This document shows, in pieces, positions 9,308 through 53,225 of a DNA stretch of 64,000 nt. Within the stretch, counting starts at the first letter, position 1. Every line of letters begins with the position of its first letter. The DNA is from Mytilus trossulus. Its lineage: Eukaryota. The stretch is taken from contig NC_086373.1 in the NCBI RefSeq assembly GCF_036588685.1, positions 21,576,001-21,640,000 on the forward strand. Reading direction: 5' to 3'. The translations under genes were made by a program, and so were the position numbers. Below the pieces are notes generated by a model. That model had not been told where the DNA came from. It saw only the letters and a program-made list of their open reading frames with translations, and did not search any database.

Positions 9308-9700
9308 TAATGCAGTATCATGGGCTCTGCTCATTGTTGAATGCAGTACAATGACTTCGTTTAATGCAGTATGGGCACTGCTCATTGTTGTAGGCAGAAA
9401 AGTGACTAAATGTTATTAATGCGACTTGGGCTCTGCTCATTGTTGACGGCAGTACACTGACTTATTGATACTAATGCAGTATGGGCCCTGCTCATAAATG
9501 AAGGCAGAAAAGTGACTAATTATAGTTTATGTGGCATGGGCTCTGCTCATAAATGAAGGCAGAAAGTGACTACTAATAATTTTAGTTAATGTGGCATGGG
9601 CTCTGCTCATTGTTGAAGGCAGTAAAATGACTTTTTGTTATTATTTAATTTGCCGTTTGTTCTACTGTGAAGAGTTGTCTAATTGAATCATACCAATTCT
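9308..9700 (+). repeat. Degenerate tandem array (~55-bp unit, ~6 copies) derived from an internal segment of the SINE-like family
   Basis: The unit AATGCAGTATGGGCTCTGCTCATTGTTGAAGGCAGTA..TGACT is repeated, then followed by the family 3' end (GAGTTGTCT..ATCATACC). Confidence 0.75.
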
Positions 9701-12027: not shown

Positions 12028-13543
12028 TGGCAAGATTAAGGGGTTATGATCGTTTCCCGTAATTGTACGTCGGATCATATTAGGTTTTTACTTTCCAGGA
12101 AGTTCTGTTGAGACCATCTCATGTCTACCCTGAGTGGCCGGTTCTGAATTGGTACCAGTTCGAGCTTGACTGTTAATGATACATAGTATGGCCTATGTAT
12201 TCAGTGTTTTATAATATAAAAAATGTTAATCTTTACTCCCCTGAAACCAGGGGGTGATGCGAATAAGACCCGACGTATTTGGGGATCATAACCCTCGTTC
12301 TCTTTAGAATTTAACCTGGAGGAACTTGAGCATCCATTGCTACCAATGGTGCACAGATTTGTCAGTTAAAACTAGCATGTCGGCATTCTGTAATCATGTC
12401 AGACCTCGTCATTCTAAGTGAACTGTGGCCGTTATTTCCACAATAGTTATTTGTTTGTTATGTTTTTGCCTAAAAATGGATTCTGTGATTAATACGGTTT
12501 ATCGCTTTTATAAGATAAACCAATTTAATTAAAGAGAAATGATTATTGCCTCATTCGGATCCGGTTCTTGTTTCCCGCCAATCAACGTCACATGACTCGT
12601 CAGCATTACATTGCACTAGCCAATCTTGTAGATATGTAAAAGTTTCAAAAACCCACCCACCTCCCCTTGCAATCTGCCATCTAATAACAATTCTTGTGTC
12701 TGCTGCTGTTTTATTTATCTTTTCAGAATGACCAGAACATGCCGGATCCATAACTTATTGGACAAAAAAGAGGAGACAATCAATCCGATGGATTTGCTAG
12801 CTGATTCATACGTTCGAGAACTATAATTATTATGTCAATGCTAATTTTCATGAATGGCTACCACCTTTATCTAAATATTTAGACACATTCAGTGTGAAAA
12901 TGGAATTACCAATACCTGGTATTAGATCTTCGCCTAGATGCATTTAACTTTTGACTTTATTTCAAATGGATAAAAATCATGCAGCATTTATTTTAATAAC
13001 TCGATTCTAATTGTTCATTGTTTTGTAATAAAATCATTCGTCACAGTCAAAAAGGGTGTCGGGATCTGGCAAGATTAAGGGGTTATGATCGTTTCCCGTA
13101 ATTGTACGTCGGATCATATTAGGTTTTTACTTTCCTGCGGTACCGCAGGAAGTTCTGTTGAGACCATCTCATGTCTACCCTGAGTGGCCGGTTCTGAATT
13201 GGTACCAGTTCGAGCTTGACTGTTAATGATACATAGTATGGCCTATGTATTCAGTGTTTTATAATATAAAAAATGTTAATCTTAACTCCCCTGAAACCAG
13301 GGGGTGATGCGAATAAGACCCGACGTATTTGGGGATCATAACCCTCGTTCTCTTTAGAATTTAACCTGGAGGAACTTGAGCATCCATTGCTACCAATGGT
13401 GCACAGATTTGTCAGTTAAAACTAGCATGTCGGCATTCTGTAATCATGTCAGACCTCGTCATTCTAAGTGAACTGTGGCCGTTATTTCCACAATAGTTAT
13501 TTGTTTGTTATGTTTTTGCCTAAAAATGGATTCTGTGATTAAT
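12028..13543. repeat. Near-identical direct repeats (12028-12493 and 13067-13543) bracketing a copied segment
   Basis: The copies are 466 and 477 bp. They differ by an 11-bp indel inside a palindrome and about one substitution. Confidence 0.92.
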
Positions 13544-18500: not shown

Positions 18501-18910
18501 TATACAACTCGTTAATAATAAATAAGAGTGTGTAGTAAGATTGTCAATACGACAAGTTTCCAACGGAGATCAAAGGACAAGAAAATACACAACTACTGGT
18601 CACAATGGGACCTTAGACAATGAGCAAAACTCGCACCATATAGTATCCTTTAAAAGACTAAAACTGAGTCTGCTACTTTATTAAAATAGTGCCAGGAATA
18701 AAAAAAAATCGATGTTAAATACCAATTGTGTGTGGGGTTATATACAACTGTTAATAATTTAATTTTGGATGAAACTCGTCTTCTGATTGGCTGACGTAAT
18801 TTTGTTATCAGCCCATATACATAATTTAGTCATGTGACCGTGACGCCATCAACGTTTTATTATGGTTTTCTACGGTTTGAAATGGAATTTAGAAAATAAA
18901 TTATAAGATA

Positions 18911-19123
18911 TGTAGTAAATGTCCGGAAAGTGATTGCCACAACCAGACTTGTTACCGGAACTTCAGTTAGTATTTACTGCGCAACCTCGCAGAATATATC
19001 CGGAGCTCAGACGACCCACTTGTGGTGAACTCCAGTCCTGGGATTCCTGCCCTATCAGTATATTCTACCAAGACAACATCTTATATTAGGAAAGGTATAT
19101 CGAATTATTGCACCTTTACAACA
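18911..19123 (+). repeat. 5' LTR (213 bp)
   Basis: TGTAGTAAA...TTTACAACA with imperfect terminal inverted repeats; 211/213 identical to the 3' LTR. Confidence 0.97.
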
Positions 19124-19124
19124 T

Positions 19125-19137
19125 TGGTGTCAGAAGT
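19125..19137 (+). promoter_or_regulatory. Primer-binding site complementary to tRNA-Leu
   Basis: TGGTGTCAGAAGT starts 1 nt after the LTR. It is the reverse complement of the 3' end of tRNA-Leu(CAA)-type tRNAs (..ACTTCTGACACCA). Confidence 0.88.
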
Positions 19138-19613
19138 CGGTTCGAATTTACTTTAAATCGACTCGAGACATTCATTGTTTCCTGACATTTTGGCGGCAAA
19201 ACTGAAAAATCACAACAAAGAAAACAAATAGTTATTGTACCTACAGAAAAGAACATTACATATTTCATGAGTATAATAATCATGGAAATTTAATGTCAGA
19301 ATTTCTGACAACCGTTTGCCCTTACATCCATTTGTTTTCATAGAAATACCTACTTTGATAATATTTGAAAATTTTCAAAATTCCTGGTGTCAGTTTTACT
19401 GACACTCCGCAATATGGCTAATCATTGAACAATTATCTTATCGTTATAAATCAGTGTCAGTGTTACTGACAATCCGCTATTTTGTTATTCAGTAAATGAT
19501 AAACTGCATATTTATATAATTGTGTCAGTGTTACTGACAGATTGCGACAAACCGCTACACGGTTATTTAGTAAATAATAAATCGCATAATTATAAACATT
19601 GCGTAAAAATAAA

Positions 19614-21163
19614 ATGGCGAAACCGATAAATATAAACAAAGCTAACTTTACGCAGTTAAAAGCGATTAAAAGGATAGGTGAAACTAGAGCCTTAGCAATA
19701 ATTGCAAAGAGAGAAGAAGAGGGATTACTTAATTTAGATAAACTTAAAGAGATTTCAGAAGCACCCCAATCATTGTGGACTGCACTGTTGAATGAGAAAA
19801 TAATTTGTTTTGAAGACCCAGAGGAGTCTGATGAAGGTCAAGAGGTCCTAAAAACACTATTGAGTCATTACGTCATAAGATTTTGTCGGTAGAAAAGTCG
19901 AGAGATGATATGGCAGAGACTTTTCAAACAAAAATTGAGAAAATTTCTGAACAGAGTAAAGCACAGATAGAAGAACAGAGGCTTATTTTTGAACAACAAA
20001 GAGACATTTATACAAAACAGAAAGAGGAACAAATTGAACAAATGAAAGAAATGATTAAATCACAGAATGATGAGATTAAAGATATACATGAATATTCAAA
20101 GAAAATTCAAACTCAACTACAGCAGAAAGAAACTGTGCTTAAGGTAGAAAAAGTAATAGCCGAAAAAGAGGAAAAAAGTAGTCCTGGTCAATTATTGAAA
20201 GGAAAATATAATGCTTATGATCATAAACATTCAGATTATGGTGGTCCCACAGCACCAAAGATGTCAACATATGATGGTAGAAATGACTGGCGTCCTTATT
20301 ATCTACAATTTAGCACTATAGCTGATAGATGCAAATGGCAGAGTGAGCAAAGGTTGTATAAATTGATTGAATGTTTGCGAGATAAAGCTTTGAAATTTTA
20401 CAGCTCAAGACCAAAGTTAGTACAAACTAATTATGAAAGCTTATGCAAGAAAATGGAAGAGCGTTTTGGTAGAAAGGAACCGCCACACATTGTAAGAAGA
20501 CTTTTACAAGATCTTAAACAAGAGCAAGAGGAATCGTTAGAGGAATTTGCAGAAAGAGCACAGGAGCTGGCTACCGATGGCTACCCGGATACACCAGATA
20601 ATTTCGTACAAACTTTGGCAACAGATGCTTTTCTTAAAGGTTGTGTAGACAAGCGTGCAGCTTTGATTGCTATGGACAAAAATCCAGATGCTCTGGATCA
20701 AGCGGTACAATATGTACGAAGTGCAGTGGCGAATCAAAAAGTCATAATGGGTACACGAAGAGCAGAAATTAAAAGGGTTTCTTTTATGGAGCAAAATGAT
20801 GAGAATGAGGATACATAGGAAACATCAGTCCGTGCAATTATGAAGTCTGACGAAGGAACAAATAAGATGAATGTGTTCGAGAAAAGATTACAGAAGACAG
20901 AAGATGATTTATTAGAAACTAAGATCATGGTAAAAAAAGTATTGAGCATAGTAAGTCAGAATATGAGGTCAAGGTCACCACAAAGAACAGATCGAGCTTT
21001 TTCGCCACAAAGAAGGTACAATAGTCCTGCAAGAGGTAATTGCTACAATTGCGGGGAAGAAGGTCATTTTAGTAGGGATTGCAAGAAGCCCAGAAATAGT
21101 TCTCCCTATCGTAATAGATCTCCATCACCAAAAGCTTTAAACGACTCGGGGCCAAGGATGTAG
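19614..21163 (+). pseudogene. gag: Gag: N-terminal ComEA-like HhH domain, coiled coil, capsid-like domain and CCHC zinc knuckle (one frameshift, one internal stop)
   Basis: Motifs: ININKANFTQLKAIKRIGETRALAIIAKRE (HhH); YDGRNDWRPYYLQF..LKQEQEESLEEFAERAQEL (capsid-like); CYNCGEEGHFSRDC (knuckle). Frameshift near 19843; in-frame TAG at 20816-20818. Confidence 0.9.
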
Positions 21164-21199
21164 GCCAATCCTTGACCTTTTCAGATGATACAGGCCAAC
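21136..21199 (+). promoter_or_regulatory. -1 programmed ribosomal frameshift signal (T TTA AAC plus stem-loop/pseudoknot)
   Basis: The heptamer TTTAAAC (21136-21142) is in the correct gag phase. After a 7-nt spacer comes the stem GGCCAAGGAT/ATCCTTGACC (21150-21177). The -1 frame is open into pol. Confidence 0.85.
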
Positions 21200-22080
21200 C
21201 GCCAACAGAAATGTCTGGTCAAGAACAGAAGTTTTCGATTCAAGAAATTTTTTCATTTTATAAAAGCAAAAAATCAAAAACTTTGTTCATTGAGATGAAA
21301 ATTTTAGGAAGAACATTTAAGGCTGTAATAGATAGTGCAGCACAAATATCTGTTTTGAGTACTTCAATTTTACCACTTTTACAGTCAACAATTAAACTAA
21401 AGGAACATTTAGTTTTGCGAGGAGCTGGAAAAAATTCTAAAATTGATGCTAGATATACAGAGGAGATACCTATCGAAATAGGGAAGTTAAAATCAAAATG
21501 GAGGTTTGTAACTGCTAACATAAATGATAATATCATTCTGGGTATTGATTTCTTGGAGAAATTTGGAGCAGTTATTGATATGGCTAACTACACAGTCCAC
21601 ATAAACAATGAGGCTATACCAGCGGTCTGTTTTGTTGGGAACGAGGGAGAAGAAATAAACTTATACAGGATTAGTATAAAAAAGAAAACAGTTGTGCCAC
21701 CTCATAGTTTAAAAATAGTTGATATGGAAATTGATCATCCCCAAGCAGATGATATCATCATTCAGCCGAAATCCAATTTAAAAGGTCTTCTGTCCCCAAA
21801 TGCTTTAATTGCTAAGGATGAATCCGTGAAGGCTGTATTTCGAAATGACACAGACACTTTTATCACATTGAAAGGGGGTCATAAATTTGGTATTGGTATG
21901 GAGATATACAATGTTGTAACTGATCAGGGTGATTTGGATGAAGACCCCGAAGTACATAGTGACAGAGTTTCTGTCAATGTCGATAATGCAAATTCGTGTA
22001 AAACGTCAGAAAACATAAGTGACAGATTTTCTGTCAGTTCGCCAACTGGTAATTTCGAGACATTGGAAAAGGTACGTGTA

Positions 22081-22290
22081 GGTGACAGGGTTTCTGCTGG
22101 TCCATCCCAAGGTGACAGATTTTCTGTCAGTCCGCCTCAAGGTGACAGATTTTCTGTCAGTCCGTCCCAAGGTGACAGATTTTCTGTCAATCCTTCCCAA
22201 GGTGACAGATTTTCTGTCAGTCCGCCTCAAGGTGACAGATTTTCTGTCAAACCGCTCAAAGGTGACAGATTTTCTGTCAAACCGTCCACA
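22081..22290 (+). repeat. In-frame 30-bp tandem repeat (7 units, GDRFSVSPxQ) in the PR-RT linker
   Basis: GGTGACAGATTTTCTGTCAGTCCGCCTCAA-type units at a 30-bp period; two further degenerate cores at 21960 and 22020. Confidence 0.95.
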
Positions 22291-25200
22291 GAAATTCGTT
22301 CTATACTAAAAGATGGAAATTCTGTAAATAAACTAAACAAATTAAAAGAACTCAATTCTAAGATTCCAGAACACCTAAAAGATTTGTATACTCGAACAGT
22401 AAAAGATTTTGACATAGATCGTAGCATAAAGATTGCTGAAGTACTCATTGAATTTCAAAATATTTTTTCTAAAGGCGACATGGATCTGGGATTGTTTAAT
22501 GGGGATATTAAACATCGAATTCACACAGGGGAGGCAGCTGCAATTAAACAACAAATGCGTAGAACTCCACTGAAATTTGAGAATGAAGAAGAAAAACATC
22601 TTAGTCAAATGTTAGATAAGGGGGTTATTAAACCTTCTATTTCAGATTGGTGTTCCTGTCCTGTTTTAGTAAGAAAGAAGGACGGCAGTCTGAGGTACTG
22701 TATTGATTTTCGTCCCCTTAATAAAGTGACAACTAAGGACGTGTTTCCTTTGCCAAAGATTGAGTTTTGTATGGATACTTTGAGAGGAAGTGCCTACATG
22801 AGTACGTTGGACATGGCTGCAGGTTATTGGCAAATAGAGATCGATGAGAAAGATCGACATAAAACGGCTTTCGTCACGAAATATGGACTTTTCGAGCATG
22901 TCCGACTGCCTTTTGGATTATGTAACTCACCAGCTACTTTCAGCCGAGTCATTCAGTTGGTTTTGAAAGGTCTGACATGGAGAGAATGCCTTGCATATTT
23001 GGATGATGTCATCGTTTTAGGTCACAGTTTTGATGACCATTTGATTAAGCTTCTGCACATCTTAAAAAGATTTCAGTACTACAATTTAAAACTTAAACCG
23101 TCCAAATGTTTCTTATTTCAAAAAGAAGTCAAGTTTTTGGGGAAAATTGTAAACAAAGATGGTATTTCAGTAAATCCGGAGAATATGCAGACTGTAAAAA
23201 GTTGGCCAAGACCAAAAAAAAAAAGGAGCTGGAATCTTTTCTCGGGTTCACAAACTACCACAGGGAACACATAAAGAATTATGCTGAAATTGCTGTGTCT
23301 TTGCATAAATTAACAGGAGGAAAATCAGAGTTTTTATGGACTGAAGAACAGGAAAATGCTTTCGAACAACTAAAAATAGCACTAGTAAATTCTTCTGTTT
23401 TAGCCTATCCTGATCCGGAAGCTACCTTCATACTTGATACTGATGCCTCGGACAAAACCATTGGTGCTGAACTTAGCCAACTACAAGATGGAAAAGAAAG
23501 AACGATAAGCTTTTCGAGTAAGGTTTTAACACCAGCTCAGAAAAAGTATTGCACAACTCGAAAGGAGTTATTGGCTATTGTCACTTTTACAAGGCAGTAT
23601 AGACATTATTTACTAGGTAACCAGTTTGTTGTCCGTACAGATCATAATAGTCTCACTTGGCTGTTAAATTTCAAGAATATTGAAGGTCAACTAGCTCGGT
23701 GGATTGAGGATTATCACAATATAACATGTTAGTTCAACATAGACCAGGTAAAAAACATGTAAACGCAGATGCTCTTTCACGAATCCCAGATACACTTAAT
23801 GAATGCAATTCATACTTGCCAAGTATTCCACTTAATAATCTTCCATGTGGAGGTTGTAAATACTGTACAAGAGCCCGGAGTCAGTGGTCCACATTTGAAG
23901 AAGAAGTAGACTTTGTTAAACCACTAACCGTACGTGCTGTAAGCATTAAAGATGTCACATCCACAAAAGGGAAGATATTACAGCCTTATACTGAAAATGA
24001 ATTAAGAGACGCACAAAAAAATGACATAGATCTGAGTACTGTTATTGCCTGGTTATCTACTGATTTCTCTCCTTCAAAACAAGACTTACAGATGAGTAGT
24101 CCATTGGTAAGGCATTTGTGGCAGTCAAAATCTGAACTTGAGTTTAGAAATGGTATACTCTACTATTTTTGGGATGATGCAGTTGCACCAAGGCTCTTGT
24201 TTATAACACCAAGGAAATTAAGACAGGCAATGCTTCATCTTTGTCATGATTTACGATCAGCTGGACATTTAGGACAAGATAAAACCTTGGCAAAATTAAG
24301 ACACACAGTTTACTGGTATGGAATGACAATGGACTGTAAACTTTATGTTTCAACATGCCATATATGCAATAGATACAAAAAACCTTTGAAGAGAGCCAAA
24401 GCAGAATTGGGTAGGTACCATTCAGGCGTTCCCTTTGAACGTATTCATTTGGATATACTTGGACCATTGCCAGTCACTCAACAGAATAATAAGTATGTTC
24501 TGGTCATCATAGATCAATTTACTAAGTGGTTGGAATGTTGTCCCTTGCCAAACCAAAATGCTGAAGTGGTAGCAAAAGCTTTGATGGATAGCACTATATC
24601 TAGATTCGGTTGTCCCATGGAGCTACATACAGACCAAGGCAAAAATGTAGATGGGAGGGTTATTAGACAACTATGTGATCTTCTTGAAGTTTCCAAGACA
24701 AGAACATCTGCATACCATCCTGCCTCCAACGGTCAGGTTGAGAGATATAATAGAATAATTACTCAATTAATCCGTTGTTTCTTAAAGAAGAATCAAAACA
24801 GATGGGATATCCACCTACAACAACTAGCAGGTGCTATCAGAGCAACAGAGAATCGACAGACTGGTTTTACACCGAATTTCATGGTTTTCGGACGAGAGGT
24901 AAATCAGCCTATTGATCTGGTTTTAGGACAAATAAAGGAACGTTTTCCAGATCAAGATATTTGTAAGTATGTTCAAAGTTTAAGAAATTCTTTAGAGGAC
25001 GCTCATGATATCGCCAGAGATAATCTAAAATCTGCGCAGAAACGTCAAAAGCAAGATTATGATTTAAATCTCAACTTTAGAAAATATTGTGTAGGAGATA
25101 TTGTACTAAAATTAGATACAGCCAGGAAAGTAGGGATATCCCCAAAATTAAAAGCTCCATGGAAAGGTCCATATGTGGTCATTGAAGTTAAGTCTCCAGC

Positions 25201-25787
25201 ATTGCTAAAGATTAAAGACAGAAAAAGAGAGGAAGTCGTGCATCATGATAGACTCAAGCTGTGCATTGACAGAGAAATACCGTTATGGTTACAGAGACTT
25301 AGAAATGATATTCTTGGACGAGCTGAGAATAAATTGGAGCGAGACACTGATATGGAGCTGGAGGATTTATATCTGGATATTTTATTTAGTGGTGAGAATC
25401 AGAATACTCAAAATGGTTTGAATCCTCTGTCAGAATCTCTGACTGACGATCTTGATAACAATGATCCCTTCTTGGTGTCATATTCTCTGACAAACAATTA
25501 TAATAATGAACAGATAATTCTTAAAGATCTTCATTCACTTATTGATATCCCGTCCGATTTAGACGCAACACTCGCTTATGACTTGAGTCAAAATTCGCTG
25601 CTTCCGAATAGTGATGATATAAATCGCGATACAGACAAATTAGATAATGGGTCCAAACAGGGACAAGTAGGTAGGCGCAAAAGACAAATGCCATCCTACT
25701 TACATGATTATGTACAGTAGATATTTTGAAATAGTGTAAATAGGATTATTATGTATATATTTACATGTTCGTTAATTTATTTTAAGT

Positions 25788-27254
25788 ATGGAGGATGAGC
25801 TTGATTATGGTCCATTTGATGGTGAAATCCCTGAAAGATTGGAGGAAGATGCCAGGATAAAAGGCAGTAGTAGGAATCTGAGTAAGGCAAGACTCTGTCC
25901 GGTATGTCCAGGTCGTTTCACTAATGTAAGAAGGCATGTATTTCACCAACATTTGCCCTGGTACACTAATCCACTAACTGCATGTTGGACTTGCCATAAA
26001 TAATTTGGTCAGAAAAGATGTTAGAAAATCATTGCCTTGAACTCCACAACTGCAATATTGCTGATAATATTTTCAAAGAAGAGTACCAGTCAGTATGGAC
26101 AGAATTGATGAATGGTCTCCTATTGGAACTTTGCCAGCGCTATGACAAAAAGACCCTTGATCATCTGGTGGAGTATGTACGAACAGAAGCTGTCTTTAAA
26201 CAATGTCAATCAGCTGTATTCCATTGGACAGATATACCCTTATTGAATTTCTACAATAAAAAAAAACAGATTTGATGTGGAAGTCATTCATGCTGTATTT
26301 CCTCCATCTGCAATATATTCTTTGGTACATTGGAAAATTTTGGCTTTATTATTAAAAGGAACTGAGGATGCCGAAAATCTTATAACATTTGAAAAGGAAA
26401 TATCCCTCTATCAATGCAGTATCCAAAAGGCTATTATGGTTACTGATTCTCATTTCCATTTGGATAAGATGAAACAACAAGCCAGATTTTCTGGCTTACC
26501 GATCTACAAATGGAAAGATGGAGAATCAGTATACCAAATAAGACATCTGATTGCTAATTATGCCTTCCCAAGACGCTGGACAACAATAGAAGAGATTGGA
26601 GAAATCAGGAGAGATCGACGTATAAGAAGTACTGCTGGTATACATCCACGGATAGTGAAGGGGGAGGAGATGAGTGTACTGAGTTCATGGATTACCGATT
26701 TAGAGATGTTAATCTGTGTGAACAGAATGATTGCAGTTGGAGAATGTGGGTTAGACTCCTCTGATAAACCAAATAGCAAAGAACTCAAGAAACAGGTCCA
26801 CGTATTTGAGGAGCAGCTTAAACTAGCTAAGAGGCAACATCTTCCTGTGGTGATTCATTGCAGGGGAGACAAGAAAATAATGAATATGTGCAGGGATTCA
26901 TTAACCAATTTCCTAGAGGAAGATCATCCAATACATTGGCATTGTTTTAATGGTGACACTGAAGAATACAGACAATGTAAAGCCATGTTTCCTAACGGTA
27001 AATTTGGTATCTCTCCGTTCCTACTCATGGATAACAAGTATCCAGGATATAGAGCAACCGTTTGTGAGATGAAGTTGGAGGATCTAGTTTTGGAGACCGA
27101 TTCACCCTATCTTAAACCTCAAGGACACCATGAGGCATCTCCTGGACTACTTAAGGAAATCATCTGGAAGCTCGCATCCATGTTTCACGTACACTCCGAG
27201 GAAATAGCTAGGGTGACAACTCGGAATGCCAGTCAACTGTATAATATAAATTAA
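25788..27254 (+). pseudogene. Accessory ORF3: two C2H2 zinc fingers plus a TatD (TATDN2-like) nuclease domain; ~488 aa when repaired
   Basis: Fingers: CPVCPGRFTNVRRHVFHQH and CWTCHK*FGQKxMLENHCLELH. TatD motifs: DSHFHLD, GIHP, AVGECGLD, FEEQLKLA..LPVVIHCR, HWHCFNG, LETDSPYL, TTRNASQLY. Lesions: TAA at 26001 and frameshifts near 26015 and 26258-26266. The TatD domain itself (26277-27254) is uninterrupted. Confidence 0.93.
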
Positions 27255-27391
27255 ATGCAGGAGGAAGGAATTTGTATATATGCTTTTAACCTGATTATTG
27301 ATTGATTGACAGTTATGAATTTGTTTTTTGGTTCGGTGAAGGATTTTAGCATATCGTTATTAGTGTCAGCATTGATGGCTGACGTTTTAAT

Positions 27392-27405
27392 AAAACGGGG
27401 AGGAA
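27392..27405 (+). promoter_or_regulatory. Polypurine tract
   Basis: AAAACGGGGAGGAA directly abuts the 3' LTR. Confidence 0.88.
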
Positions 27406-27618
27406 TGTAGTAAATGTCTGGAAAGTGATTGCCACAACCAGATTTGTTACCGGAACTTCAGTTAGTATTTACTGCGCAACCTCGCAGAATATATCCGGAG
27501 CTCAGACGACCCACTTGTGGTGAACTCCAGTCCTGGGATTCCTGCCCTATCAGTATATTCTACCAAGACAACATCTTATATTAGGAAAGGTATATCGAAT
27601 TATTGCACCTTTACAACA
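27406..27618 (+). repeat. 3' LTR (213 bp)
   Basis: Copy of 18911-19123 with two C/T differences; followed by the TSD GATA. Confidence 0.97.
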
Positions 27619-29338
27619 GATATGACTGGAATATTTTTTCTGTCTATTAAAATTAAAATTTAAAAAAATGTGGTGTGTTAAATAACCCGCGGCTACGCGC
27701 GTTATTCAGTGTGCACCCAATTTTTTATGTTATTTCTTCATAGACAGAAAAAATATTACAGTCATTCCTTAAAAAAATATTTATTTTCTGATTATTTTGG
27801 GATTTTCAACCACATTTATCAAATGCTATTTTTTTTTTATATGTGTGTAAATCATATAAATGTTATTTACGAACAAAATATAAAACTTTCCATGTTCCTT
27901 CCTAATAACACAGTTTTATATGCTACGTGTGTTATTGAGTGTGTAACACATTTTTATGTTATTTCTTCATTTAAACAGAAACATATTACAGTCATTCCTT
28001 GAATATACATGTATTTTAAAGTTTAGTTAAGTATTTAATTTTCTATCGAAACCAATTTTCGACAGTTTGCAATATGAGTTTTGACCGTCAAACTCAGTTT
28101 AAGTTCTTTTTCTAGGACATACATACGTAGTCATGAATAATAAGGTTAGGAGAAATTCGTTTGTGAATGTTCGTCTGACTGAAATGACGAAAACAATAAT
28201 GATACTTTGCAGAGGAAATCAATGTTCTTTCATCTGAAGATTGTTTTCAACGTAACCAAATTTATCCCATTGACACGCAATACAAAATTTAATAATAAAT
28301 AGCATGCAGGATTCCCATTATCCAGATTATCTTCAAATAAGTCGCTTATACCAATGAGAAAATAAATTCAATTTTTTTCAAATTGAATAAGAACTTGACT
28401 GTTAAATTATGTAACGGTTTGTATGTACTGAAGTTAATTGATCGTTTTTATGTAAATTTCATTCACTTCTCAAATCTGTAACCTACAAATTCAATAATGA
28501 TTTTTTTTGCCATGAGGGAATTGTCTCCTGAAAAAGTGAAATTATCTTCAATATACTGTCGAATTTATCCTCAGTGAAATAAATGACTCGAGGTCATTTC
28601 ATTTCACCATCGAGACTCTTAAATCTGTCAAAATCGCAAGTCGCTACAGCCCTATCAAGTTGTTGACTCTGAACAAAAACTCATTATAAAGAAATAATCA
28701 AAACACCAATTCCCCGGTTGTAAACTCATCAAATTTATCATTCAGGATAAGGAAATGAAGCAGAGCATCATATTTGTTCAAATATGTGATATTTGTTCAA
28801 ATATAACATATTGCTACATACATAACATTGAATTGCTGCGAAACTGCAAGGTTAACTATAGAGTATGTTGTTTATGAAGTCAATATGTATGCATTGATCT
28901 CAAAATTGGTCTACATAAGACAAACTTCTCACGAAACACTGCATGGAAATGATCTTATAGACACCTCCATCTACAGGCTTTGACAAGAAACCATAACATT
29001 TTTATATAGAATTATAATTAATAAACACATTTTTGACTTATACTTCTTTAGGTGACAACGAATTATTTTGTTCTTTACATCCTTTAATTTACTTCAAATA
29101 CCTGCACACAAAGAAACTTACTTTATTGATATTATAGAGGATTGCTTAAGCAAGACATTTGCGTCATAGACAGTATTATAAATAAATATATATATGAGTG
29201 CCATTTCGGGAGAGAAACTTTAACTTAATGTTTAAGCGCAGTACCTTTATAGATTATATTAACATTAGTGTGTTATTTGATTTATACATACCCTAGTATT
29301 AATTATGAAAAAAATGAAAACATCACGTTTATTAATTT

Positions 29339-35300: not shown

Positions 35301-35797
35301 ACGAGTTTCCGTTTGCTTGTTGCTTGTATCATTAAGCACATGCAAATCTTTACACAACTTATCATAGCATATAATTGTTTTTGTAGATGATGTAGAGACA
35401 AAAAGATAAAGTTATTTTTGTGCAAACCCAAATTTTTATAAGTATGAAAAATATTTGATAAACATATAAAGCAATTTATACAACATATTATTATAATTCT
35501 GTACGATTACGATGCACTTTAAGACCAGATGACAACAATAGTTACGGCATTTGTTATTGGATTTTCAAAACAACCTTTGTAAGAGTGCATAAGATAAGCA
35601 ATAAACGTTTATTCAAAACATTTAATGTTTTAATGGGGTTTTAATTCACAAGAAGAGGAGAGAAATTAATGCACGTGTTTACTAAGGATTTATTTGTTTG
35701 CACTAAAGATAATGATTACGGTGTACAAAAAAATAGGTGAACGCATGATATTTAAGCATGAAAGAAAGTAGATGTGTGGTATATTAAAAGCATAATC

Positions 35798-36946
35798 TTA
35801 ACACAAGAAAAACATAAACACACGCTTTAAAAATGTTTTGGATTCATTTCGAAATTTGGTATCCATAAAAGCATAAATGAAAGGGTTTACAATATTGTTG
35901 ATTATAAACATATCCGATACGAACAGCACACCTGATCTCTTCGCTTTTGACATTTCCTCCCAAAAATCCTTGTTTAGTCCTTCAATAATAAGCAAAATTA
36001 CCTTTGATATATAACAAAGTAAAAATATCAAGGTTATGAAGAGAAACATAATTGTAATATTATGGGTAATTCGACGATTATTTTTCGTACGTCTTACGGA
36101 TCCATTTTGCTTGGGATTATTCACCGTCGAGGTTTCCATGTTCTTCTTTGCATCCAAACTATTTGGATCACTGATGCCGATTGAAAGCTCTTCGATTAAT
36201 TGCATGTCTCCACTAAAAGAAGCAGCGCTTTTTTTAATCGAAATTGTATTTCCTTCTAGGTCTGGATCGTTTTGCGCATATTTACGCCTCGGTTCCTGAA
36301 CTTTAAGCTGATGGAATATTGTGTACCCGATTTTAGAGTATAAAATGATAAGGGCTAATGTTACAACAGTAGCAAACGTTCCCAATACAATTGAGTAGAC
36401 AACCCGGAATGTTGTTTCGCCATCTTTTACTCCTCCACAATGCATTCCTTCTATCCCATGCTCAGAGCTGTAAAAGGAATTCGTTTCAAACACAAAGGGT
36501 ATAGGTAGTGCAATAATAAATGAACACAAATTTGCGAGACACAATGAAAGTCTTTTTACCGAACGTTGTATAGGAGATTTCTGCCGATGACACACTTTTA
36601 AATATCGCTGAATTGCTATAATGAGCAAAACAAATATTGGAACAAAAGTAGTAAATCCAGCAAAAAACTGTGTTAGCTTGCAAACTATACTGTTTGAAAA
36701 AACTACTTGATTTAGACACTCATAAATTGCAAAAGATCCAAGATATACACTTGCTATCATGTCAAAAACAGCTAAAATTGGTATGAAATATCTTTCATCT
36801 GATAGGTCCTTTATTTGAAGTGCATAAACAAACAAAACAATACCGTTTCCAAATATTCCAGTCAGGATATAGATAGAAAGAATAATAATGTTTGGTATCA
36901 AACTTTTCACTATTTCATCATTCAAATCCAAAACTGTGATGTTCAT
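35798..36946 (-). CDS. Intronless class A (rhodopsin-like) GPCR, orphan peptide-receptor-like, 382 aa
   Basis: Seven hydrophobic segments. GN in TM1, LAVFD in TM2, Cys at the top of TM3, QRY (DRY variant), ECL2 Cys, NPFIY in TM7, and helix 8 (KFR). Confidence 0.93.
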   Translation of the reverse strand: MNITVLDLNDEIVKSLIPNIIILSIYILTGIFGNGIVLFVYALQIKDLSDERYFIPILAVFDMIASVYLGSFAIYECLNQVVFSNSIVCKLTQFFAGFTTFVPIFVLLIIAIQRYLKVCHRQKSPIQRSVKRLSLCLANLCSFIIALPIPFVFETNSFYSSEHGIEGMHCGGVKDGETTFRVVYSIVLGTFATVVTLALIILYSKIGYTIFHQLKVQEPRRKYAQNDPDLEGNTISIKKSAASFSGDMQLIEELSIGISDPNSLDAKKNMETSTVNNPKQNGSVRRTKNNRRITHNITIMFLFITLIFLLCYISKVILLIIEGLNKDFWEEMSKAKRSGVLFVSDMFIINNIVNPFIYAFMDTKFRNESKTFLKRVFMFFLC

Positions 36947-38049
36947 GTTTATTCAACCCAAAAAACATACCATACACCTTGTAGAAGTTTGAATATAAAG
37001 ATTCAAAACATTTTTATTTATTGTTCCTCATATAATGTTATAAATCTATATAGATGCTGTAAACGTAGAATTTCCTTCCTTGAACAAAATAAGAGAGAAT
37101 GATTATCCATACCACTTAATGACAATTAAGGTTTGAGTTTCCTGATATTGAAATTTTAAATGAGAAAATCTTAATAAGTTAAAGTATTTCTAAGCCGGTC
37201 ACGGTTTTCAAAAAATTCAACCAGAAAAATTGTAAAGGAAATAAAAAAAAATCTGCTTTACCATTTTAATAAAATTGTATTGAAGGAAAGTAAAAAAAAA
37301 CAGGTTCCAGCCATATTTCAAAACTAAGGGAATATTTTCTCTAAATAGAATACGGATCTGAATTCAGATCTAAAGTGGAAAAAGACCTACTTTTATGTAT
37401 TATTTTAATCTTAATGTTTACCTATCCATAGTTTCTTCATATGCTCGCTCATTTTGTTCACTTCTTAAGTTGTCACTGAGGAAGATATCTGCTGTTTTTT
37501 TTTATGTTTTACATGTGACCCCAAAATAAAGCTTAACAAGTCGAAATTGTGGTATTTTGTGATTGCGTGCATAGAAGATAGCAGGGCATAGAAACATTTT
37601 TATATTGATCGATATATATTTAGATTATATGTTCATCAGATGCATACTTTGCATTTTATTTTATAGATCTACCGAAAGTAATTTATAGTCATGTGATATA
37701 GGTATATCGTGTATTTTCATTTACATCGAGAGAAAAAAATCATTTATCAGTTCATAATAATGGTATTTAACTGACAATGAAATCATATTATGCATTGTTT
37801 TGCACAACAAACACATATTCTTCTGGAATCTGAGATATTTGACTCATGCCTTGACAACTGTCTAATGCCGAACACGTCTTTTGAACAGATATAACTTTAA
37901 AGTATCATTAAGCAGTCAAATTGATGTTAATAACTTATAATATATGGCTAAATTTTAATATGCATTTAGCAGTATAAGAATGTATCATAGATGATTTTAT
38001 TTATTTCCTATAAAATTGGTATATTACAAGACTTTTGATGTTGTATTAC

Positions 38050-39415: not shown

Positions 39416-40015
39416 TAGTTTGATTTGCAACTGTTCTGAATTTTGTTTACCATGTATCGAATCGAAAGAATGAAGTATATTGTAAAACAGATGGTGGTCC
39501 AAATGGATAAAAAGTCTTCCTGACCTCACAACCATAAATAAAAAAATTAATCATACATATGTCAGCTGGTTTTTACACTTGGAAATGCGGCAAATAAGTT
39601 TTTTCACAACTAATGGTTGTAACATTTACATGATTTTTTAAAATAAAATCCTTTTGACACAAAGAAAAAAGTATCAGAGGCACCACATTTTAAATATTAA
39701 TAGTTAATTAATAGGTATGTAAACAATTTGATGAACATATTAAACATTTACAAAATTGTATCATCATCCATAACGTTTTCAATGCACTATTAGCTATGAT
39801 GACAAAACATTTTTCGGGACATGTTTTGGGTTTTAAACACAATTATTGTAAGAGTCCATGAAATTAGCAATTACTGTTAATTCACAAGTTAACAATTAGT
39901 GCACGTGTTACCTCATGGTTCATGTGCTTGCACTTAAAGTATGATGATTACGTTATGAAAACATAGGTGAAAACGCGACATTTTAGTCTTTAAGGTAGAT
40001 GTGTGGTATAATAAA

Positions 40016-41188
40016 CTAATAATCTTTACATACGCAAAACATAAACAAACGTTTCAAAAATGTTTTGGATTCATTTCGAAATTTGGTATCCATGAAAGCA
40101 TAAATGAAAGGGTTCACAATATTGTTAATTATAAACATATCCGATATGAACAGCACACCTGATCTTTTCCCTGTTGACATTTCCTCCCAAAAATCCTTGT
40201 TAACTCCTTCAATAATCAGCAATATTACCTTTGAAATATAACAAAGCAAAAATATCGAGGTTATGACGAAAAACATAATTGTAATATTATTGGTAATTCG
40301 ACGATTAATTTTCTGTCGTCTCATTGATCCACTCTGCTTAGGAGTATTTCCCATTGAAATTGTCATGTCCTGATTTACGTTTAAATTATTTGGATCACGA
40401 ATAACTGTTGAATTCTCAATATCTTTTTCCGTTTCAATCAATTGCACGTCTCCACTCAGAGAAGCAGCACTTATTTCGATCGAAATTGTCTTTCCTTCCT
40501 GGTCTGAATCGTTTTGCGTATGCTTGCTCTTCGGTGTATTGGCCTTAAGCTGATGGAATATTGTATACCCGATTTTGGAATATAAAATTATAAGCGATGA
40601 TGTTACCACAACGGCAAATGTTCCTAATACAATTGAGTACACAATCGGGACTATTGTTTTGCCATCTTTTATTCCACCACAATGCATTCCGTCTATCCCA
40701 TGCTCAGAGCTGTAAAAGGAATTCGTTTCAAACACAAAGGGTAAAGGTAGCGCAATAATAAATGAACACAAATTTGCGAGACATAACGAAACTCTTTTTA
40801 CCGAAAGTTGCATTGGAGATTTCAGAGGATGACACACTTTTAAATATCGCTGAATAGCTATAATGAGTAAAACAAATATTGGAACGAAAGTAGTAAATCC
40901 AGCAAAAAACTCTGCTGTCTTGCAGACTATACTGTTTGAAAAAACTACTTGGTTTAGACATTCATAAATTGCAAAAGACCCAAGATATACACTTGCTATC
41001 ATGTCAAAAACAGCTAAAATTGGTATGAAATATCTTTCATCTGATAGGTCCTTCATACGGAGTGTATAAACGATCAAAACGATACCGTTTCCAAAAATTC
41101 CTGTCATGATATATAGAGAGAGTAAGACAATATTTGGTATAAGACTTTTCACTATTTCATCATTCCATTCCAATGCCGTAACATTCAT
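40016..41188 (-). CDS. Intronless class A GPCR, tandem paralogue of 35798-36946, 390 aa
   Basis: Same motifs (GN, LAVFD, QRY, NPFIY). Long stretches are identical to the neighbouring gene, and the 3' flanks are also homologous. Confidence 0.93.
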   Translation of the reverse strand: MNVTALEWNDEIVKSLIPNIVLLSLYIMTGIFGNGIVLIVYTLRMKDLSDERYFIPILAVFDMIASVYLGSFAIYECLNQVVFSNSIVCKTAEFFAGFTTFVPIFVLLIIAIQRYLKVCHPLKSPMQLSVKRVSLCLANLCSFIIALPLPFVFETNSFYSSEHGIDGMHCGGIKDGKTIVPIVYSIVLGTFAVVVTSSLIILYSKIGYTIFHQLKANTPKSKHTQNDSDQEGKTISIEISAASLSGDVQLIETEKDIENSTVIRDPNNLNVNQDMTISMGNTPKQSGSMRRQKINRRITNNITIMFFVITSIFLLCYISKVILLIIEGVNKDFWEEMSTGKRSGVLFISDMFIINNIVNPFIYAFMDTKFRNESKTFLKRLFMFCVCKDY

Positions 41189-42144
41189 GTTGATACAAAG
41201 GAATTTATCCAGTCGTCACAGCCCAAATGATCTGCTTGTACTGTTTAATACATAAATTTATAAACGTTTCTTTGTTTTGTTCCCTTTCTATTGTGGTAGT
41301 TTTAAAAAAGTAAGTGTACAAAATATTGTTTCATCTCATATAAAAGACAGTTGAGGAAATATTTGTGTTCAAGGTAGATCAGAGTTAATCTTACGTAACT
41401 ATCACATTCCTTTTTCGTGTTAACTCGGTTACAAGTTGAAATTAATATATTTGAATGTACGCATGGCTGACACTATTATTGTCGTCTGAAAATGAAGTGG
41501 TCACGTTTGGTTTAGAATTACGGAAGGTGATGGCGTTGACTGAAACAATTCTTTACTTGCTTTAACGATATTAATTTCAATACATTTATATTTTAATGAC
41601 ATGCTTTTACTAAGTCACAATCAGATTTTGATATTATGGCATTCTCACTTTTTTCTTTGTCTGTGTGTTAGTTACCTCTTTCTTACTCGTTAGCAAATTC
41701 ATTTCTATTCAAGCGACCTGTTCCGTCCAAAAGTTGAATTGACAAAACATATAAAGTCATTTGACGGGTAGATGACAATATATAATATCACAATAGAGGA
41801 TATGGCGAATGCTAACGAAATAAGAAATGTTTAGCTCATTTCACGATATCTTGGCACCTAATTAGTCTATATGAATGACAAAGCATGTGTTTCATATCAT
41901 GTAAATATAGGAAATGAGAAAAATTGAAATAGTGAAATAGTGAAAAAAACGAAATCGGAGAAAAATGTAAAAGGAGGGACGGTCAGTTTGAGTGTTTGTA
42001 AAACAAAGACATGGATAATTTAGATATTTATACTTATTGACGTTTCTTAACTTTTTTCAATTTGACATACATAATATGCATATTTTGTTGATAATTGGTA
42101 ATCATGTTGATAAATTTCCTGCAGTTTTCAAATATTTATACTAA

Positions 42145-49730: not shown

Positions 49731-52228
49731 CTAGAACAATCATATGCATGTTTCAACAAGAAACATGTGGTGCCACTATTGTTAACGCTGCCAATATCTT
49801 TATACATATTGGTCATTGTGCGGCCTTAAAACATGAGAGAACTCATACAGTAAACTCAGCTGTTACATGTGACCCCCAACAAGTACTTGTTAGAAACATG
49901 GACATAAGAAGAGTAATTAGTATTAAAGCTTATTTTTGGTTTAATGGTCTATAGACATATTCGTCAAAGCTAATGGGGTATTTTATTTTAGAAACTTGAA
50001 ATACTTTATTTATAGACTAGAAGTGGTTGTGACAGACGTGAGGTAACATCGAGATGTCTTGATGTATTGTACCGTTGGGTTGTCATCACATGGACAAACA
50101 CCTCACATTTCGTTTCATGCATATGTCAATGTTGAGGACCTACATTCCATGAATAAATGATCACAAATTATTCAAACAATTGTTTTTATCATATTTTGAC
50201 ATCTGGTTAAGATTACAAAATCATTCGTATACAAGGATATTAATATTTCAACCAATAAAAGGTCATTAACAGCCATAAGGATCAATTGTATAAATGCAAG
50301 GTCAGTAATTTGTCTATTATCATCATTACTGTATTTTCCCACAATATTGTTTTGATGGTGTAGGCGAATAATTTCTTTTGACAACGCTCAGTTATAATGA
50401 AGTATAATATTAATTTTAAAAGATAACTTGTCAGTGTTTTTCATATACTCTATATACATGTTTCAATATTTTTTCTTAATCATATTTAGTCATTACCTAC
50501 AATATGGATGTTAGATTGCATGTGTTGCTTGTGTGGATATTGTATGACCATTGTGATTTATATTAATGTTTTTTGCTCTGTATTGGCCCTTTAGTTAAGA
50601 ATAAAGACATTTATTTTGATTTGCCTTGGTTTATATTAAATTTGATCGTTTTTTTTTTTGGAAGTTGCATTGCACGTAGTCGATATCATGGCTGAAGGAG
50701 GTAGTGCCAAAACACGCAATACTGTTAATTCAGAAATCAAAATGCGATACTCGTTATAATTTCGATTTTTAAAAACAATTGCATACACATATATGTATAA
50801 TCTAGTAAAATGCGAATTTTTATTAGTGCGACACTAATCACGTCGCATACATCGCATTAATGAAAAATCTCGCAATAATTTCGAAATTTAAAAGTAAACT
50901 GCGCCTGGCGATGATCAACATTAATTTTCTCTCTGACTTTTTGCCGAAATCATGGGGAATGAGATCACTGTCGATACTATTATTTGTGGACTTTCAGTGT
51001 TATAAAACTATGTCGTATCAACCTGCTCACATGAAATTTCATAACGCCTTATTTCTATATATTTTTTCAAAACATAAAGCATTCGACCTTTTTGTTTTTT
51101 TCTTGTTTCAATATTTGTTTTTATAATGATTAAGATTATCACACAAAATTGACTCCAAAACACATTTTTACACTTTTTACCTATTATGTCTGTTTGTTTT
51201 GGTCACGTTTTATTGTCAATACGATTGAAATGTATGCGACTGTCATACAAGTGTGAGGTTTAACTAGCTATAAAACAAGGAAAACAAGGTTTAATTCAAA
51301 ACTTTCTAAATAAGAAAATGCCTGAACTAAGCAAGGAATGTGACAGTTGTTATCCATTTGTTTGATGTGTTTGATCTTTTGGTTTGGCCATTTGATTATT
51401 GACTATTCTGTGTTTTATTTTCCCCAAAGTTCGGTTTTTATTGGGATTTTACTGTACATATGAACTAGTTTGATCATATTTTGACATCTGGTTAAGTTTA
51501 CATAAACATTTCTAAACAAGGTTATAAATATTTCAACAAACCAAAGGTCATTAAAAGCCATAAGGATCATTTGTATAAATGCAAGGACAGTATTTTGTCA
51601 ATTATCATTAATACTGTATTTCCCACTATTTTCTATTGATAGTGTAGGCGAATAATTTATTTGTCAAAGCTCAGTCTTAATGTGGAATATAATATTAGTT
51701 TGGAAGGATGACCAGTGAGTTTTGTTCCAGCTATCCGGTGGTTTTCACAGATTTTCTTTATCCGGAAGAATTTTATTTATATACTGTATATACATGTTTC
51801 CATCTTTATTCATTAAGAATTAGTTTTTATGTTAGATTGCATGTATTGGTTGTGTGGATATTATATGATTTTTGTGATTTGTTTTCATTCATGTCCTATG
51901 GAAGCCTTTCAATTAGGAATAAACACATTATACGATTCGCTCGTGTATGTAACAATGTTTTAGATTTTAACGATAGAAATTTATGTATTACTGAAAAATT
52001 ATTACACAAGGGTTTTCGATATCACAAATAAGTCAAAACATTTACTAAATTTTATCATCGGTATAAAGACATCATTCGTAAATATAGCTCAACATGCAGA
52101 CTTCTAATACGTTCAGGTATTTCATATCCAATTCTTTATGGAAATATTCTTTATAAAGCACAAAGGTGTCAGTATTCACCTCAGAAACTTACAAAATAGT
52201 TATCAAAAGTACCAGGATTATAATTTTA

Positions 52229-52273
52229 TACGCCAGACGCGCGTTTCGTCTACATAAGACTCATCAGTGACGC
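52229..52273 (-). ncRNA. Type I hammerhead ribozyme
   Basis: GCGTCA CTGATGA GTCTTATGTAGAC GAAA CGCGC GTC TGGCGT: intact core, stem II GTCT/AGAC, GUC cleavage triplet, stem I GCGTCA/TGGCGT. Confidence 0.85.
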
Positions 52274-52585
52274 TCAGATCAAAATAGTTAAAAAGCCAAA
52301 TAAATACAAAGTTGAAGAGCATTGAGGATCCAAAATTCCAAAAAAGTTGTGCCAAACACGGCTAAGGTAATCTACTCCTGGGGTAAGAAAATCCTTAGTT
52401 TTTCGAAAAATTCAAAGTTTTGTAAACAGAAAATTTATAAAAATGACCATATAAATTAATTTTCATGTCAACACCGAAGTGCTGACCACTGGGCTGGTGA
52501 TACCCTCGGGGACGAAACGTCCACCAGCAGTGGCATCGACCCAGTGGTGTAAATAGTTATCAAAAGTACCAGGATTATAATTTTA

Positions 52586-52630
52586 TACGCCAGACGCGCG
52601 TTTCGTCTACATACGACTCATCAGTGACGC
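52586..52630 (-). ncRNA. Type I hammerhead ribozyme (second copy)
   Basis: Same motif 357 bp away, with one change in stem II. Confidence 0.82.
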
Positions 52631-53009
52631 TCAGATCAAAATAAATACAAAGTTGAAGGGCATTGAGGATCCAAAATTCCAAAAAAAGTTGTGCCAAACA
52701 CGGCTAAGGTAATCTACTCCTGGGGTAAGAAAATCCTTAGTTTTTCGAAAAATTCAAAGTTTTGTAAACAGAAAATTTATAAAAATGACCATATAAATTG
52801 ATATTCATGTCAACACCGAAGTGCTGACCACTGGGCTGGTGATTCAAAACCTTTGAATAGACCTATTAAGAAGGGATATAATTACGATACTGTTGTCAAG
52901 TCATTAAAGATTGCATATTTTGGCGTTAATATTGAGTCACTGATAAGGTCTTTGCATTGGAACTAAACACATTTATTCTAAAAAACAGTTGTTGGCATGA
53001 CACGGGTTA

Positions 53010-53225
53010 CCGTATAGCGGGTTATTTTCGCGGGTGTAAAATTTCGCGATTTTCATTGAAAAAGGTATACGAAATATTTTAGCGGATATTATTTGGCGGA
53101 TGAAAACTTTTATTAATACCTTTGCATGAACACCTTTAATTTGGCGGAATTTATTTTTGGCGATTTTCTTCTATCCGCGAAAATAAGCGAAAATTTACAC
53201 CCCGCGAAAATAACCCGCTATACGG
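53010..53225. mobile_element. Tc1/mariner-type MITE with TA TSD
   Basis: TA-CCGTATAGCGGGTTATTTTCGCGGG ... CCCGCGAAAATAACCCGCTATACGG-TA. Confidence 0.9.

Follow-up and report, generated by a model that had tools for sequence, protein, structure and literature searches.

What does a short palindrome do that recurs in several separate places along one retrotransposon, and what reads it? The question is raised by a 64-kb stretch of the genome of the mussel Mytilus trossulus (contig NC_086373.1, positions 21,576,001 to 21,640,000 of the forward strand; referred to here as the window), in which positions 18911-27618 hold a Ty3/Gypsy long terminal repeat (LTR) retrotransposon with two LTRs, a GATA duplication, a primer site and a polypurine tract all present. 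In addition to gag and pol, the element carries a third gene, open reading frame 3 (ORF3), encoding two C2H2-type zinc fingers, a helical domain and a TatD nuclease. According to our proposal, to which we give about even chances, the palindromes are family-specific self-tags that form hairpins on the plus strand and would be read by the element's own finger-TatD protein.

A palindromic tag with a version for each family

The pattern TGWCAGW-NNN-WCTGWCA, with at most one mismatch allowed, is matched 14 times in the window, every time within the element, whereas 100 shuffled windows gave 0.21 matches on average and never more than 2. All palindrome copies reported in a preliminary description of this DNA were recovered in place, including a degenerate one at 22083. 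The three clusters it had distinguished (5' untranslated region (UTR), protease-reverse transcriptase (RT) linker and the tail behind integrase) are real, but two perfect copies with 7-nt arms and a 3-nt spacer, at 20682 and 26480, had been overlooked. Together with the degenerate copy, these bring the number of window tags to 17 (Table 1). The statement that all copies lie in non-coding or low-constraint linker sequence has to be narrowed: the linker and tail copies are within pol reading frames, and the one at 26480 is within the TatD domain. Likewise, a CCG following the tag within 1-3 nt is found at 8 of the 14 copies (counted by eye) and was not seen to be kept in other families. Six of the linker tags share one 30-nt tandem repeat and are therefore not independent copies. 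The enrichment over genomic background that had been anticipated is partly a matter of the elements themselves, which contribute to the excess of exact matches (248 genome-wide versus 123 for a reversed control). An Rfam scan gave three matches with E values of 1.6-3.9, each far under its gathering score.

We sorted 80 stretches around related elements of the same genome into families and built an RT tree of 26 rows, in which families A (that of the window) to H form one group (support 99/94). Tallies are based on one representative per family (eight A-H loci, plus the UTR of L063 for H), and the interiors of conserved domains were masked for site counts, covariation and mismatch tallies. Three copies, L045, L049 and L051, were excluded as representatives; they are long inverted duplications that fold back on themselves and are possible sources of double-stranded RNA.

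RT identity between families is 57-72%, and each of the eight families A-H has its own version of the palindrome around the common core CRG-N5-CYG. We found AGTCAGA...TCTGACT and GTCAGT...ACTGAT in family B, TGWCGGA...TCTGACA in C, CGTCAGA...TCTGATG in D, CATCRGA...TCYGATG in E, CCGG-N5-CTGG in F and H, and GACAGC...GCTGTY in G. Outside conserved domains the representatives contain 5-15 sites each, compared to 0.18-0.60 in shuffles. These sites lie in the 5' UTR, the Gag-protease and protease-RT linkers, the integrase tail and just inside TatD; families G, H and I have sites in the 3' UTR as well. When palindromes were searched for without presupposing the core, these clusters came up again in A, B, E and G and, more weakly, in C, D and F; for family H it showed no cluster. 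The L063 5' UTR (family H) contains three copies with a 4-nt spacer, CCGG-ACAA-CTGG, next to the usual 5-nt ones. In the case of the ninth family, I, the core-free search revealed a distinct hairpin with a 3-nt loop, RRGGCC-CHY-GGCYYY, present as seven hairpins in five regions. Common to families A-I is an ORF3 with two fingers.

For comparison, 12 of 20 planned control loci were sampled. In 11 Gypsy loci without ORF3 we counted 0-3 core sites versus 0.3-1.2 in shuffles and saw no such tag system; L101 had 3 core sites versus 0.8, and L100 had one three-region cluster with a 9-nt loop in the core-free search. Families whose ORF3 has one finger give a mixed picture (the 5' UTRs of J and K lay outside the sampled stretches). 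Palindromes in J and M are not above shuffle level. Family K has eight tandem GGGGTGTC-N9-GACACCCC stems, two of them with T·G pairs, in the low-complexity part of ORF3 (L082:7483-7864, oriented). Family L carries CGTGA-N4-TCACG at six places (four in the UTR, one in the RNase H-integrase linker and one in ORF3; L090:852-7492, oriented), besides two GTGG variants. Copies of this motif are retained in L099, which lacks ORF3 but has nearly the same RT as family L; in L100 and L101, sister loci of family L also lacking ORF3, there are two and one weak matches, respectively.

The tags are conserved beyond their surroundings. In sister copies the arms differ at 11/534 positions versus 457/7420 in the flanks (16 pairwise comparisons, not all independent), and the tags are kept at matching places in all eight families although the sequence around them is unalignable. 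The tag within TatD occupies one aligned place in six of the eight families (D and G do not have it), each time in the style of its own family, while the peptides encoded there vary (ARFSG, VGSSD, TRHSG, TGCSG, TGLTG). It also occurs at the anchored place in three of four metagenome loci, two of which are near-identical. With a loose filter, which lets in a few chance sites, 37 sites are non-coding and 28 and 16 fall in two reading frames. A constraint at the peptide level (D-R-x-S) was thereby ruled out; the sites being non-coding or in two frames, with different peptides at the TatD site, the constraint must therefore be on the nucleic acid. The earlier view of a selected cis-acting signal is thus borne out, and to judge from these comparisons the tag is a real, family-specific signal.

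Plus-strand hairpin or duplex site

Whether such a signal acts as an operator for a dimeric protein or as an RNA hairpin had been left undecided. The compensating changes between arms that had been claimed were checked on a sample of 80 sites (core-only filter, 54 distinct arm pairs, positions 2, 3, 5 and 7). Watson-Crick pairs make up 144/216, versus 115 (maximum 131) with the 3' arms shuffled within families (p=0.0002). Arms thus co-vary site by site, so that symmetry is preserved at the level of the single site. A dimer whose half-sites are independent would have no need of this; palindrome correction could contribute to this covariation. With the same filter, 38 G·U/U·G mismatches were observed versus 6 A·C/C·A. 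A separate count by family-by-position events gave 13 versus 1, and the neutral share of the G·T class is 0.45-0.46. An earlier tally over whole elements had given 10 G·T-type versus 3 A·C-type mismatches (p=0.02). Since the two classes are equivalent in duplex DNA and only G·U is tolerated in a plus-strand hairpin, this bias favours the hairpin. In the families with a finger-1 histidine (C, F and H; see below), T is retained on the 3' arm, with G·T at 34/35, 22/28 and 16/19 sites, respectively. Hence, only the 5' strand follows the residue, in keeping with a single reader on the stem of a hairpin and unlike what a symmetric duplex reader would predict.

Several points weigh against a hairpin. 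The wobble events share ancestry and, collapsed to position-by-type, are reduced to 6 versus 1; in some families a G·T share of up to ~0.7 is to be expected from the base composition of the UTR by itself; and A·A mismatches are common (11). The predicted probability of stem formation in context is near equal for the two strands (0.70 vs 0.67) and low in tandem clusters. Furthermore, a spacer fixed in length but free in sequence is typical of DNA operators.

The latter trait, here a 5-nt spacer, is one of the reasons to consider that the tags are duplex-DNA operators for ORF3, bound by a dimer or a split reader, and that they serve anti-silencing or transcriptional feedback by marking the integrated copy. 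The fingers are C2H2-like, with Arg and Asn/His/Lys at base-reading positions, their best fold matches are DNA-bound tandem fingers, and multiplication by tandem repeats is seen with VANC targets too (PMC5735166). Site-by-site arm covariation, plus-strand wobble mismatches, G on one arm only in the histidine families and the three 4-nt spacers in the family H UTR all speak against operators, which we consider unlikely, if still a serious contender. A plus-strand hairpin, be it in RNA or in displaced plus-strand DNA, is favoured by covariation and wobble, not proven.

ORF3 as the candidate reader

As for the protein that would read such hairpins, the element's own finger-TatD protein, one of the candidates named in the preliminary description, is the best supported. 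Stem position 5 is A in families A, B, D and G, G in C, F and H, and mixed in E (10 A, 12 G). Gag, Pol and ORF3 together give 1,968 aligned columns without gaps in any of the eight families; of these, position -4 of finger 1 (His versus Asn) is the sole one that separates C, F and H from A, B, D, E and G. Base-reading positions of C2H2 fingers are -1, -4 and -7, adenine being read by Asn and guanine by His, Lys or Arg (PMC12264921), and the observed correlation runs in the direction of this code (Asn-A, His-G). Family I has Lys at finger-1 position -4 and G at stem position 5. On the RT tree, C groups with A, B and E (87/92) and G with F and H (100/100), which implies at least two switches at this position. 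In 119 homologues, position -1 is Arg in 88, position -4 is His in 42, Asn in 26, Arg in 14 and Lys in 11, and Arg/Lys are commonest at -7. The two-finger domain was modelled with a pLDDT of 94, and the metal-binding motifs of TatD (DxH-H, GExG, H, H-H, E-D) are invariant across the eight families.

There are also points against this assignment. The link between finger and base was spotted after the fact, and ~0.8 columns per partition are expected by chance (46 non-clade 3-vs-5 columns, 55 partitions), so that only the location and direction of finger-1 position -4 carry weight. Family E (Asn) has G at 12/22 sites, and L113 and L114 (His) show G at 1/3 sites each. An out-of-sample test on seven extra loci yielded no new informative family: these were members of known families (three of D, one each of H and I), a fragment, or degenerate, as in L134, where CGG...CCG is present and the finger region is damaged. 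Finger 1 of the window family has nine residues from the last Cys to the first His, versus the canonical twelve (PMC12264921), and the C2H2 recognition code is a duplex-DNA code. Fold matches, to DNA-bound tandem fingers, are weak (best Z 4.4, root mean square deviation 3.1, 56 aligned; Foldseek best E 0.73). Finally, hairpins and a two-finger ORF3 were found together in one or two lineages only. The fold searches showed no clear relative of the ORF3 helical domain, and the Atlas clusters returned were unnamed or generic C2H2.

The helix-hairpin-helix (HhH) domain of Gag, also suggested before as a reader, is contradicted by family I, which carries hairpins but gave no HhH hit; neither was a CCHC knuckle found in any of its four copies (L077, L078, L081, L088), whose Gag ends in an Arg/Ser/Pro-rich tail. 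Conversely, HhH and knuckle are both present in family M, which shows no tag system. This bears on the possibility that the tags are dispersed packaging or dimerisation hairpins to which Gag binds, their stems concealing UCUG in the manner of Moloney murine leukaemia virus (MoMLV). In the MoMLV packaging signal, too, the 3' arm of a hairpin with palindromic sequence contains UCUG, and the Gag of that virus likewise has a single knuckle (PMC3247676, PMC7599994). Our tags are distributed along the whole RNA, many 3' arms contain UCUG, and such palindromes can also pair between two RNA copies. However, mussel tags are not confined to the leader, being spread over five regions of the element, and occur in family I, where knuckle, HhH and CUG are all absent; a knuckle-like motif is found in all 11 control loci, yet there is no tag system; no Gag column tracks stem position 5; and one tag lies in the predicted spliced message. 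Reading by Gag is therefore improbable in our estimate.

Near-palindromes are known to undergo correction by mutation, and a chance palindrome might have been spread by internal duplication, its symmetry being kept by template-switch correction. Such a neutral origin fits the six linker tags forming a tandem repeat, and correction could yield covariation. It is largely refuted, and we consider it highly improbable: arm divergence is one third of the flank rate, placement is homologous across families with 57-72% identical RT, the TatD site lies over different peptides, and G·T mismatches are kept, though correction would erase them. Equally remote is a host factor (a TALE homeodomain or host RNA-binding protein) or the primer tRNA as reader, for which the TALE (MEIS/TGIF) core TGACAG in the window linker copies, the TGTCAGA shared with the window primer site and a roughly twofold genome-wide excess of the pattern have been considered: families within one host have different tag versions, element copies account for part of that excess, TGACAG is absent in D, E, F, H and I and, in the window, flips its orientation between UTR and linker, and the motif does not follow the primer sites, which are different in C, F and I.

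This raises the question how ORF3 would be expressed. In 6/7 two-finger families examined, a similar splice-donor-like word is present 70-20 nt before the LTR ends (chance 0.06-0.12 each; the stretch was picked after the fact). An acceptor-like AG, 0-14 nt before the ORF3 start, follows a tract of 59-88% pyrimidine in 11/12 families examined. Since both words are conserved, ORF3 is probably made from spliced RNA. RNA runs, of which four out of 24 were covered, are too shallow to weigh for or against this: the three raw ones gave 14, 5 and 4 reads and no splice joint. According to the prediction, 16 of the 17 window tags are within the intron and one is in ORF3's own message (exon 2).

In vivo, we infer, the tag would fold on the plus strand, in genomic RNA or in DNA displaced by transcription, to give a stem of 5-7 bp closed by a loop of 3-5 nt. 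Finger 1 of ORF3 would read the 5' strand of the stem, whereas the 3' arm would only need to pair, and binding would deliver the TatD nuclease domain to transcripts of the element's own family. With nearly all tags in the predicted intron, the likeliest use would be a feedback loop on unspliced RNA, in which ORF3 trims, protects or releases tagged transcripts. The outcome of binding might be turnover, protection, export or R-loop clearing. A bolder version, which we hold to be rather doubtful, is a barcode-and-reader system with a private tag per family and a zinc-finger-guided TatD nuclease recognising only that tag. The nuclease might process the element's own nascent RNA or R-loops and so evade RNA-guided silencing, or it might serve to distinguish own RNA from the RNA of the dozen or so families living in the same genome. 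Tag and reader would diversify jointly, one residue against one base, and one-finger families would use other geometries, e.g. the CGTGA-N4-TCACG of family L.

Complex retroviruses have Rev/RRE-type systems (Rev, Rex, Rem, Rec), in which the accessory protein is made from spliced RNA and promotes export of unspliced RNA. The mussel element would resemble them in its predicted spliced-RNA accessory protein and in cis structures that are mostly intronic and so mark unspliced RNA. It differs in having many small dispersed hairpins rather than one large element and in a candidate reader made of zinc fingers fused to a nuclease. The window tag in the predicted exon 2 and the 3' UTR sites of G, H and I would lie outside the intron. 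While the layout thus seems to be like that of Rev and its response element, the working mode appears closest to that of VANC and its motifs in VANDAL, where a transposon-encoded accessory protein is likewise associated with short family-specific motifs, tandem-multiplied in low-constraint regions, and co-evolution has been proposed (PMC5735166). VANDAL is a MuDR DNA transposon of Arabidopsis, whereas the mussel host is an animal LTR retrotransposon. The VANC target is a 9-mer without palindromic symmetry, bound as duplex DNA, whereas the mussel motif is palindromic with plus-strand wobble. The mussel protein consists of C2H2 fingers and a TatD nuclease and is not VANC, and anti-silencing is known for the VANC side only. 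Human TATDN2, which is reported to cut RNA hairpins and the RNA of R-loops (PMC10711561), shares the TatD fold with intact metal-binding motifs; it is a host gene, and the portion of that article available to us does not mention a family-specific target tag. A survey of mollusc Ty3/Gypsy elements describes the same general anatomy, and its main text is without the words 'nuclease', 'zinc', 'PBS' and 'palindrom' (PMC6238403; supplements not covered). PMC13547354, which deals with Arabidopsis products, has no bearing on the mussel element. A literature search that left out Repbase Reports, subscription journals and supplements turned up no description of TatD or finger-TatD genes, or of such palindromes, in LTR retrotransposons.

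If ORF3 reads the tags, an animal LTR element would have a protein and a motif that co-evolve, much as VANC and its targets in plant DNA transposons, with a nuclease in addition; if the barcode reading is true, ORF3 would represent a natural family of sequence- and structure-specific nucleases with a simple code. Two open questions are touched, namely how retrotransposon proteins choose the RNA of their own family and what role extra genes play in animal Gypsy elements. For both, a two-finger domain and substrates of 17 bases offer a test, and matched variants of reader and tag are at hand in nine natural families. With 689 representatives at E <=0.001, the finger-plus-helical reader domain has a wide distribution, so the system probably reaches well beyond mussels. 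Six proteins (P0015, P0016, P0017, P0023, P0026 and P0080) of 1,500-3,000 aa have 3-5 matches to this domain each and are possibly domesticated arrays. Scans of viral contigs with the finger domain gave no relative among 91 and 73 candidates. Searching viral contigs for the pattern itself yielded 16 loci, all set aside as unrelated; the six inspected were short tandem repeats.

Structure of the host element and other features of the window

The order of gag followed by protease, RT, RNase H and integrase was confirmed by Pfam for the window element, in which all three genes are disrupted. For ORF3, Pfam recognises TatD alone (PF01026, E 2e-42), and the closest named relatives are from Mytilus mussels (97% identity). 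The primer-binding site, we assume, matches a leucine tRNA.

Table 1. Positions of tags, genes and other features of the element in the window
Feature	Position	Strand	Remarks
Target-site duplication, left	18907..18910	+	GATA, 4 bp; right GATA at 27619-27622
5' LTR	18911..19123	+	TG...CA; 99% identity to 3' LTR
Splice-donor-like word in LTR	19092..19100	+	AAG/GTATAT; predicted intron start 19095
Primer-binding site	19125..19137	+	TGGTGTCAGAAGT
Tag, 5' UTR 1	19294..19310	+	pattern match
Tag, 5' UTR 2	19388..19404	+	pattern match
Tag, 5' UTR 3	19455..19471	+	pattern match
Tag, 5' UTR 4	19523..19539	+	pattern match
gag	19614..21163	+	N-terminal HhH_3, capsid, single CCHC knuckle (Pfam); broken into three pieces
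Tag, capsid end	20682..20698	+	ATCCAGA-TGC-TCTGGAT; newly found
pol	21118..25720	+	protease, RT, RNase H, integrase (Pfam); broken into three pieces
Nine tags, protease-RT linker	21960..22279	+	21960, 22020, degenerate 22083, six in 30-nt repeat from 22113
Tag, integrase tail 1	25428..25444	+	pattern match
Tag, integrase tail 2	25476..25492	+	perfect palindrome in sister copy L031
T-rich tract and AG	25770..25786	+	splice-acceptor-like; directly before ORF3 ATG
ORF3	25788..27254	+	two C2H2-type fingers, helical domain, TatD nuclease; broken into three pieces
Finger 1 of ORF3	25896..25952	+	Asn codon 25923-25925 tracks stem position 5 across families
Tag, TatD coding region	26480..26496	+	AGCCAGA-TTT-TCTGGCT; newly found
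Polypurine tract	27392..27405	+	read off sequence
3' LTR	27406..27618	+	followed by GATA 27619-27622

At the gag-pol junction (21136-21174), TTTAAAC, presumably a frameshift heptamer, is followed by a stem-loop, CAAGGAT-GTAGGCCA-ATCCTTG, which contains the gag stop. To judge from its sequence, this looks like a -1 frameshift signal, and families C and E have similar stems where gag meets pol. One related element has a Lys/Arg/Ser-rich tandem-repeat frame between integrase and ORF3 (L062:6740-7606, oriented). Directly after the 3' LTR of the window element there is a 45-nt inverted repeat (27622-27765). Elsewhere in the window, minus-strand reading frames of 384 and 399 aa (35765-36952 and 39992-41215) belong to a duplication spaced 4.2 kb and 84-90% alike. 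Positions 2251-2418, 9319-9677, 12096-13445 and 50184-57343 hold tandem arrays with units of 28 and 55 nt, a 300-nt duplication with identical copies and several dispersed repeat families, of the kind typical of the host genome.

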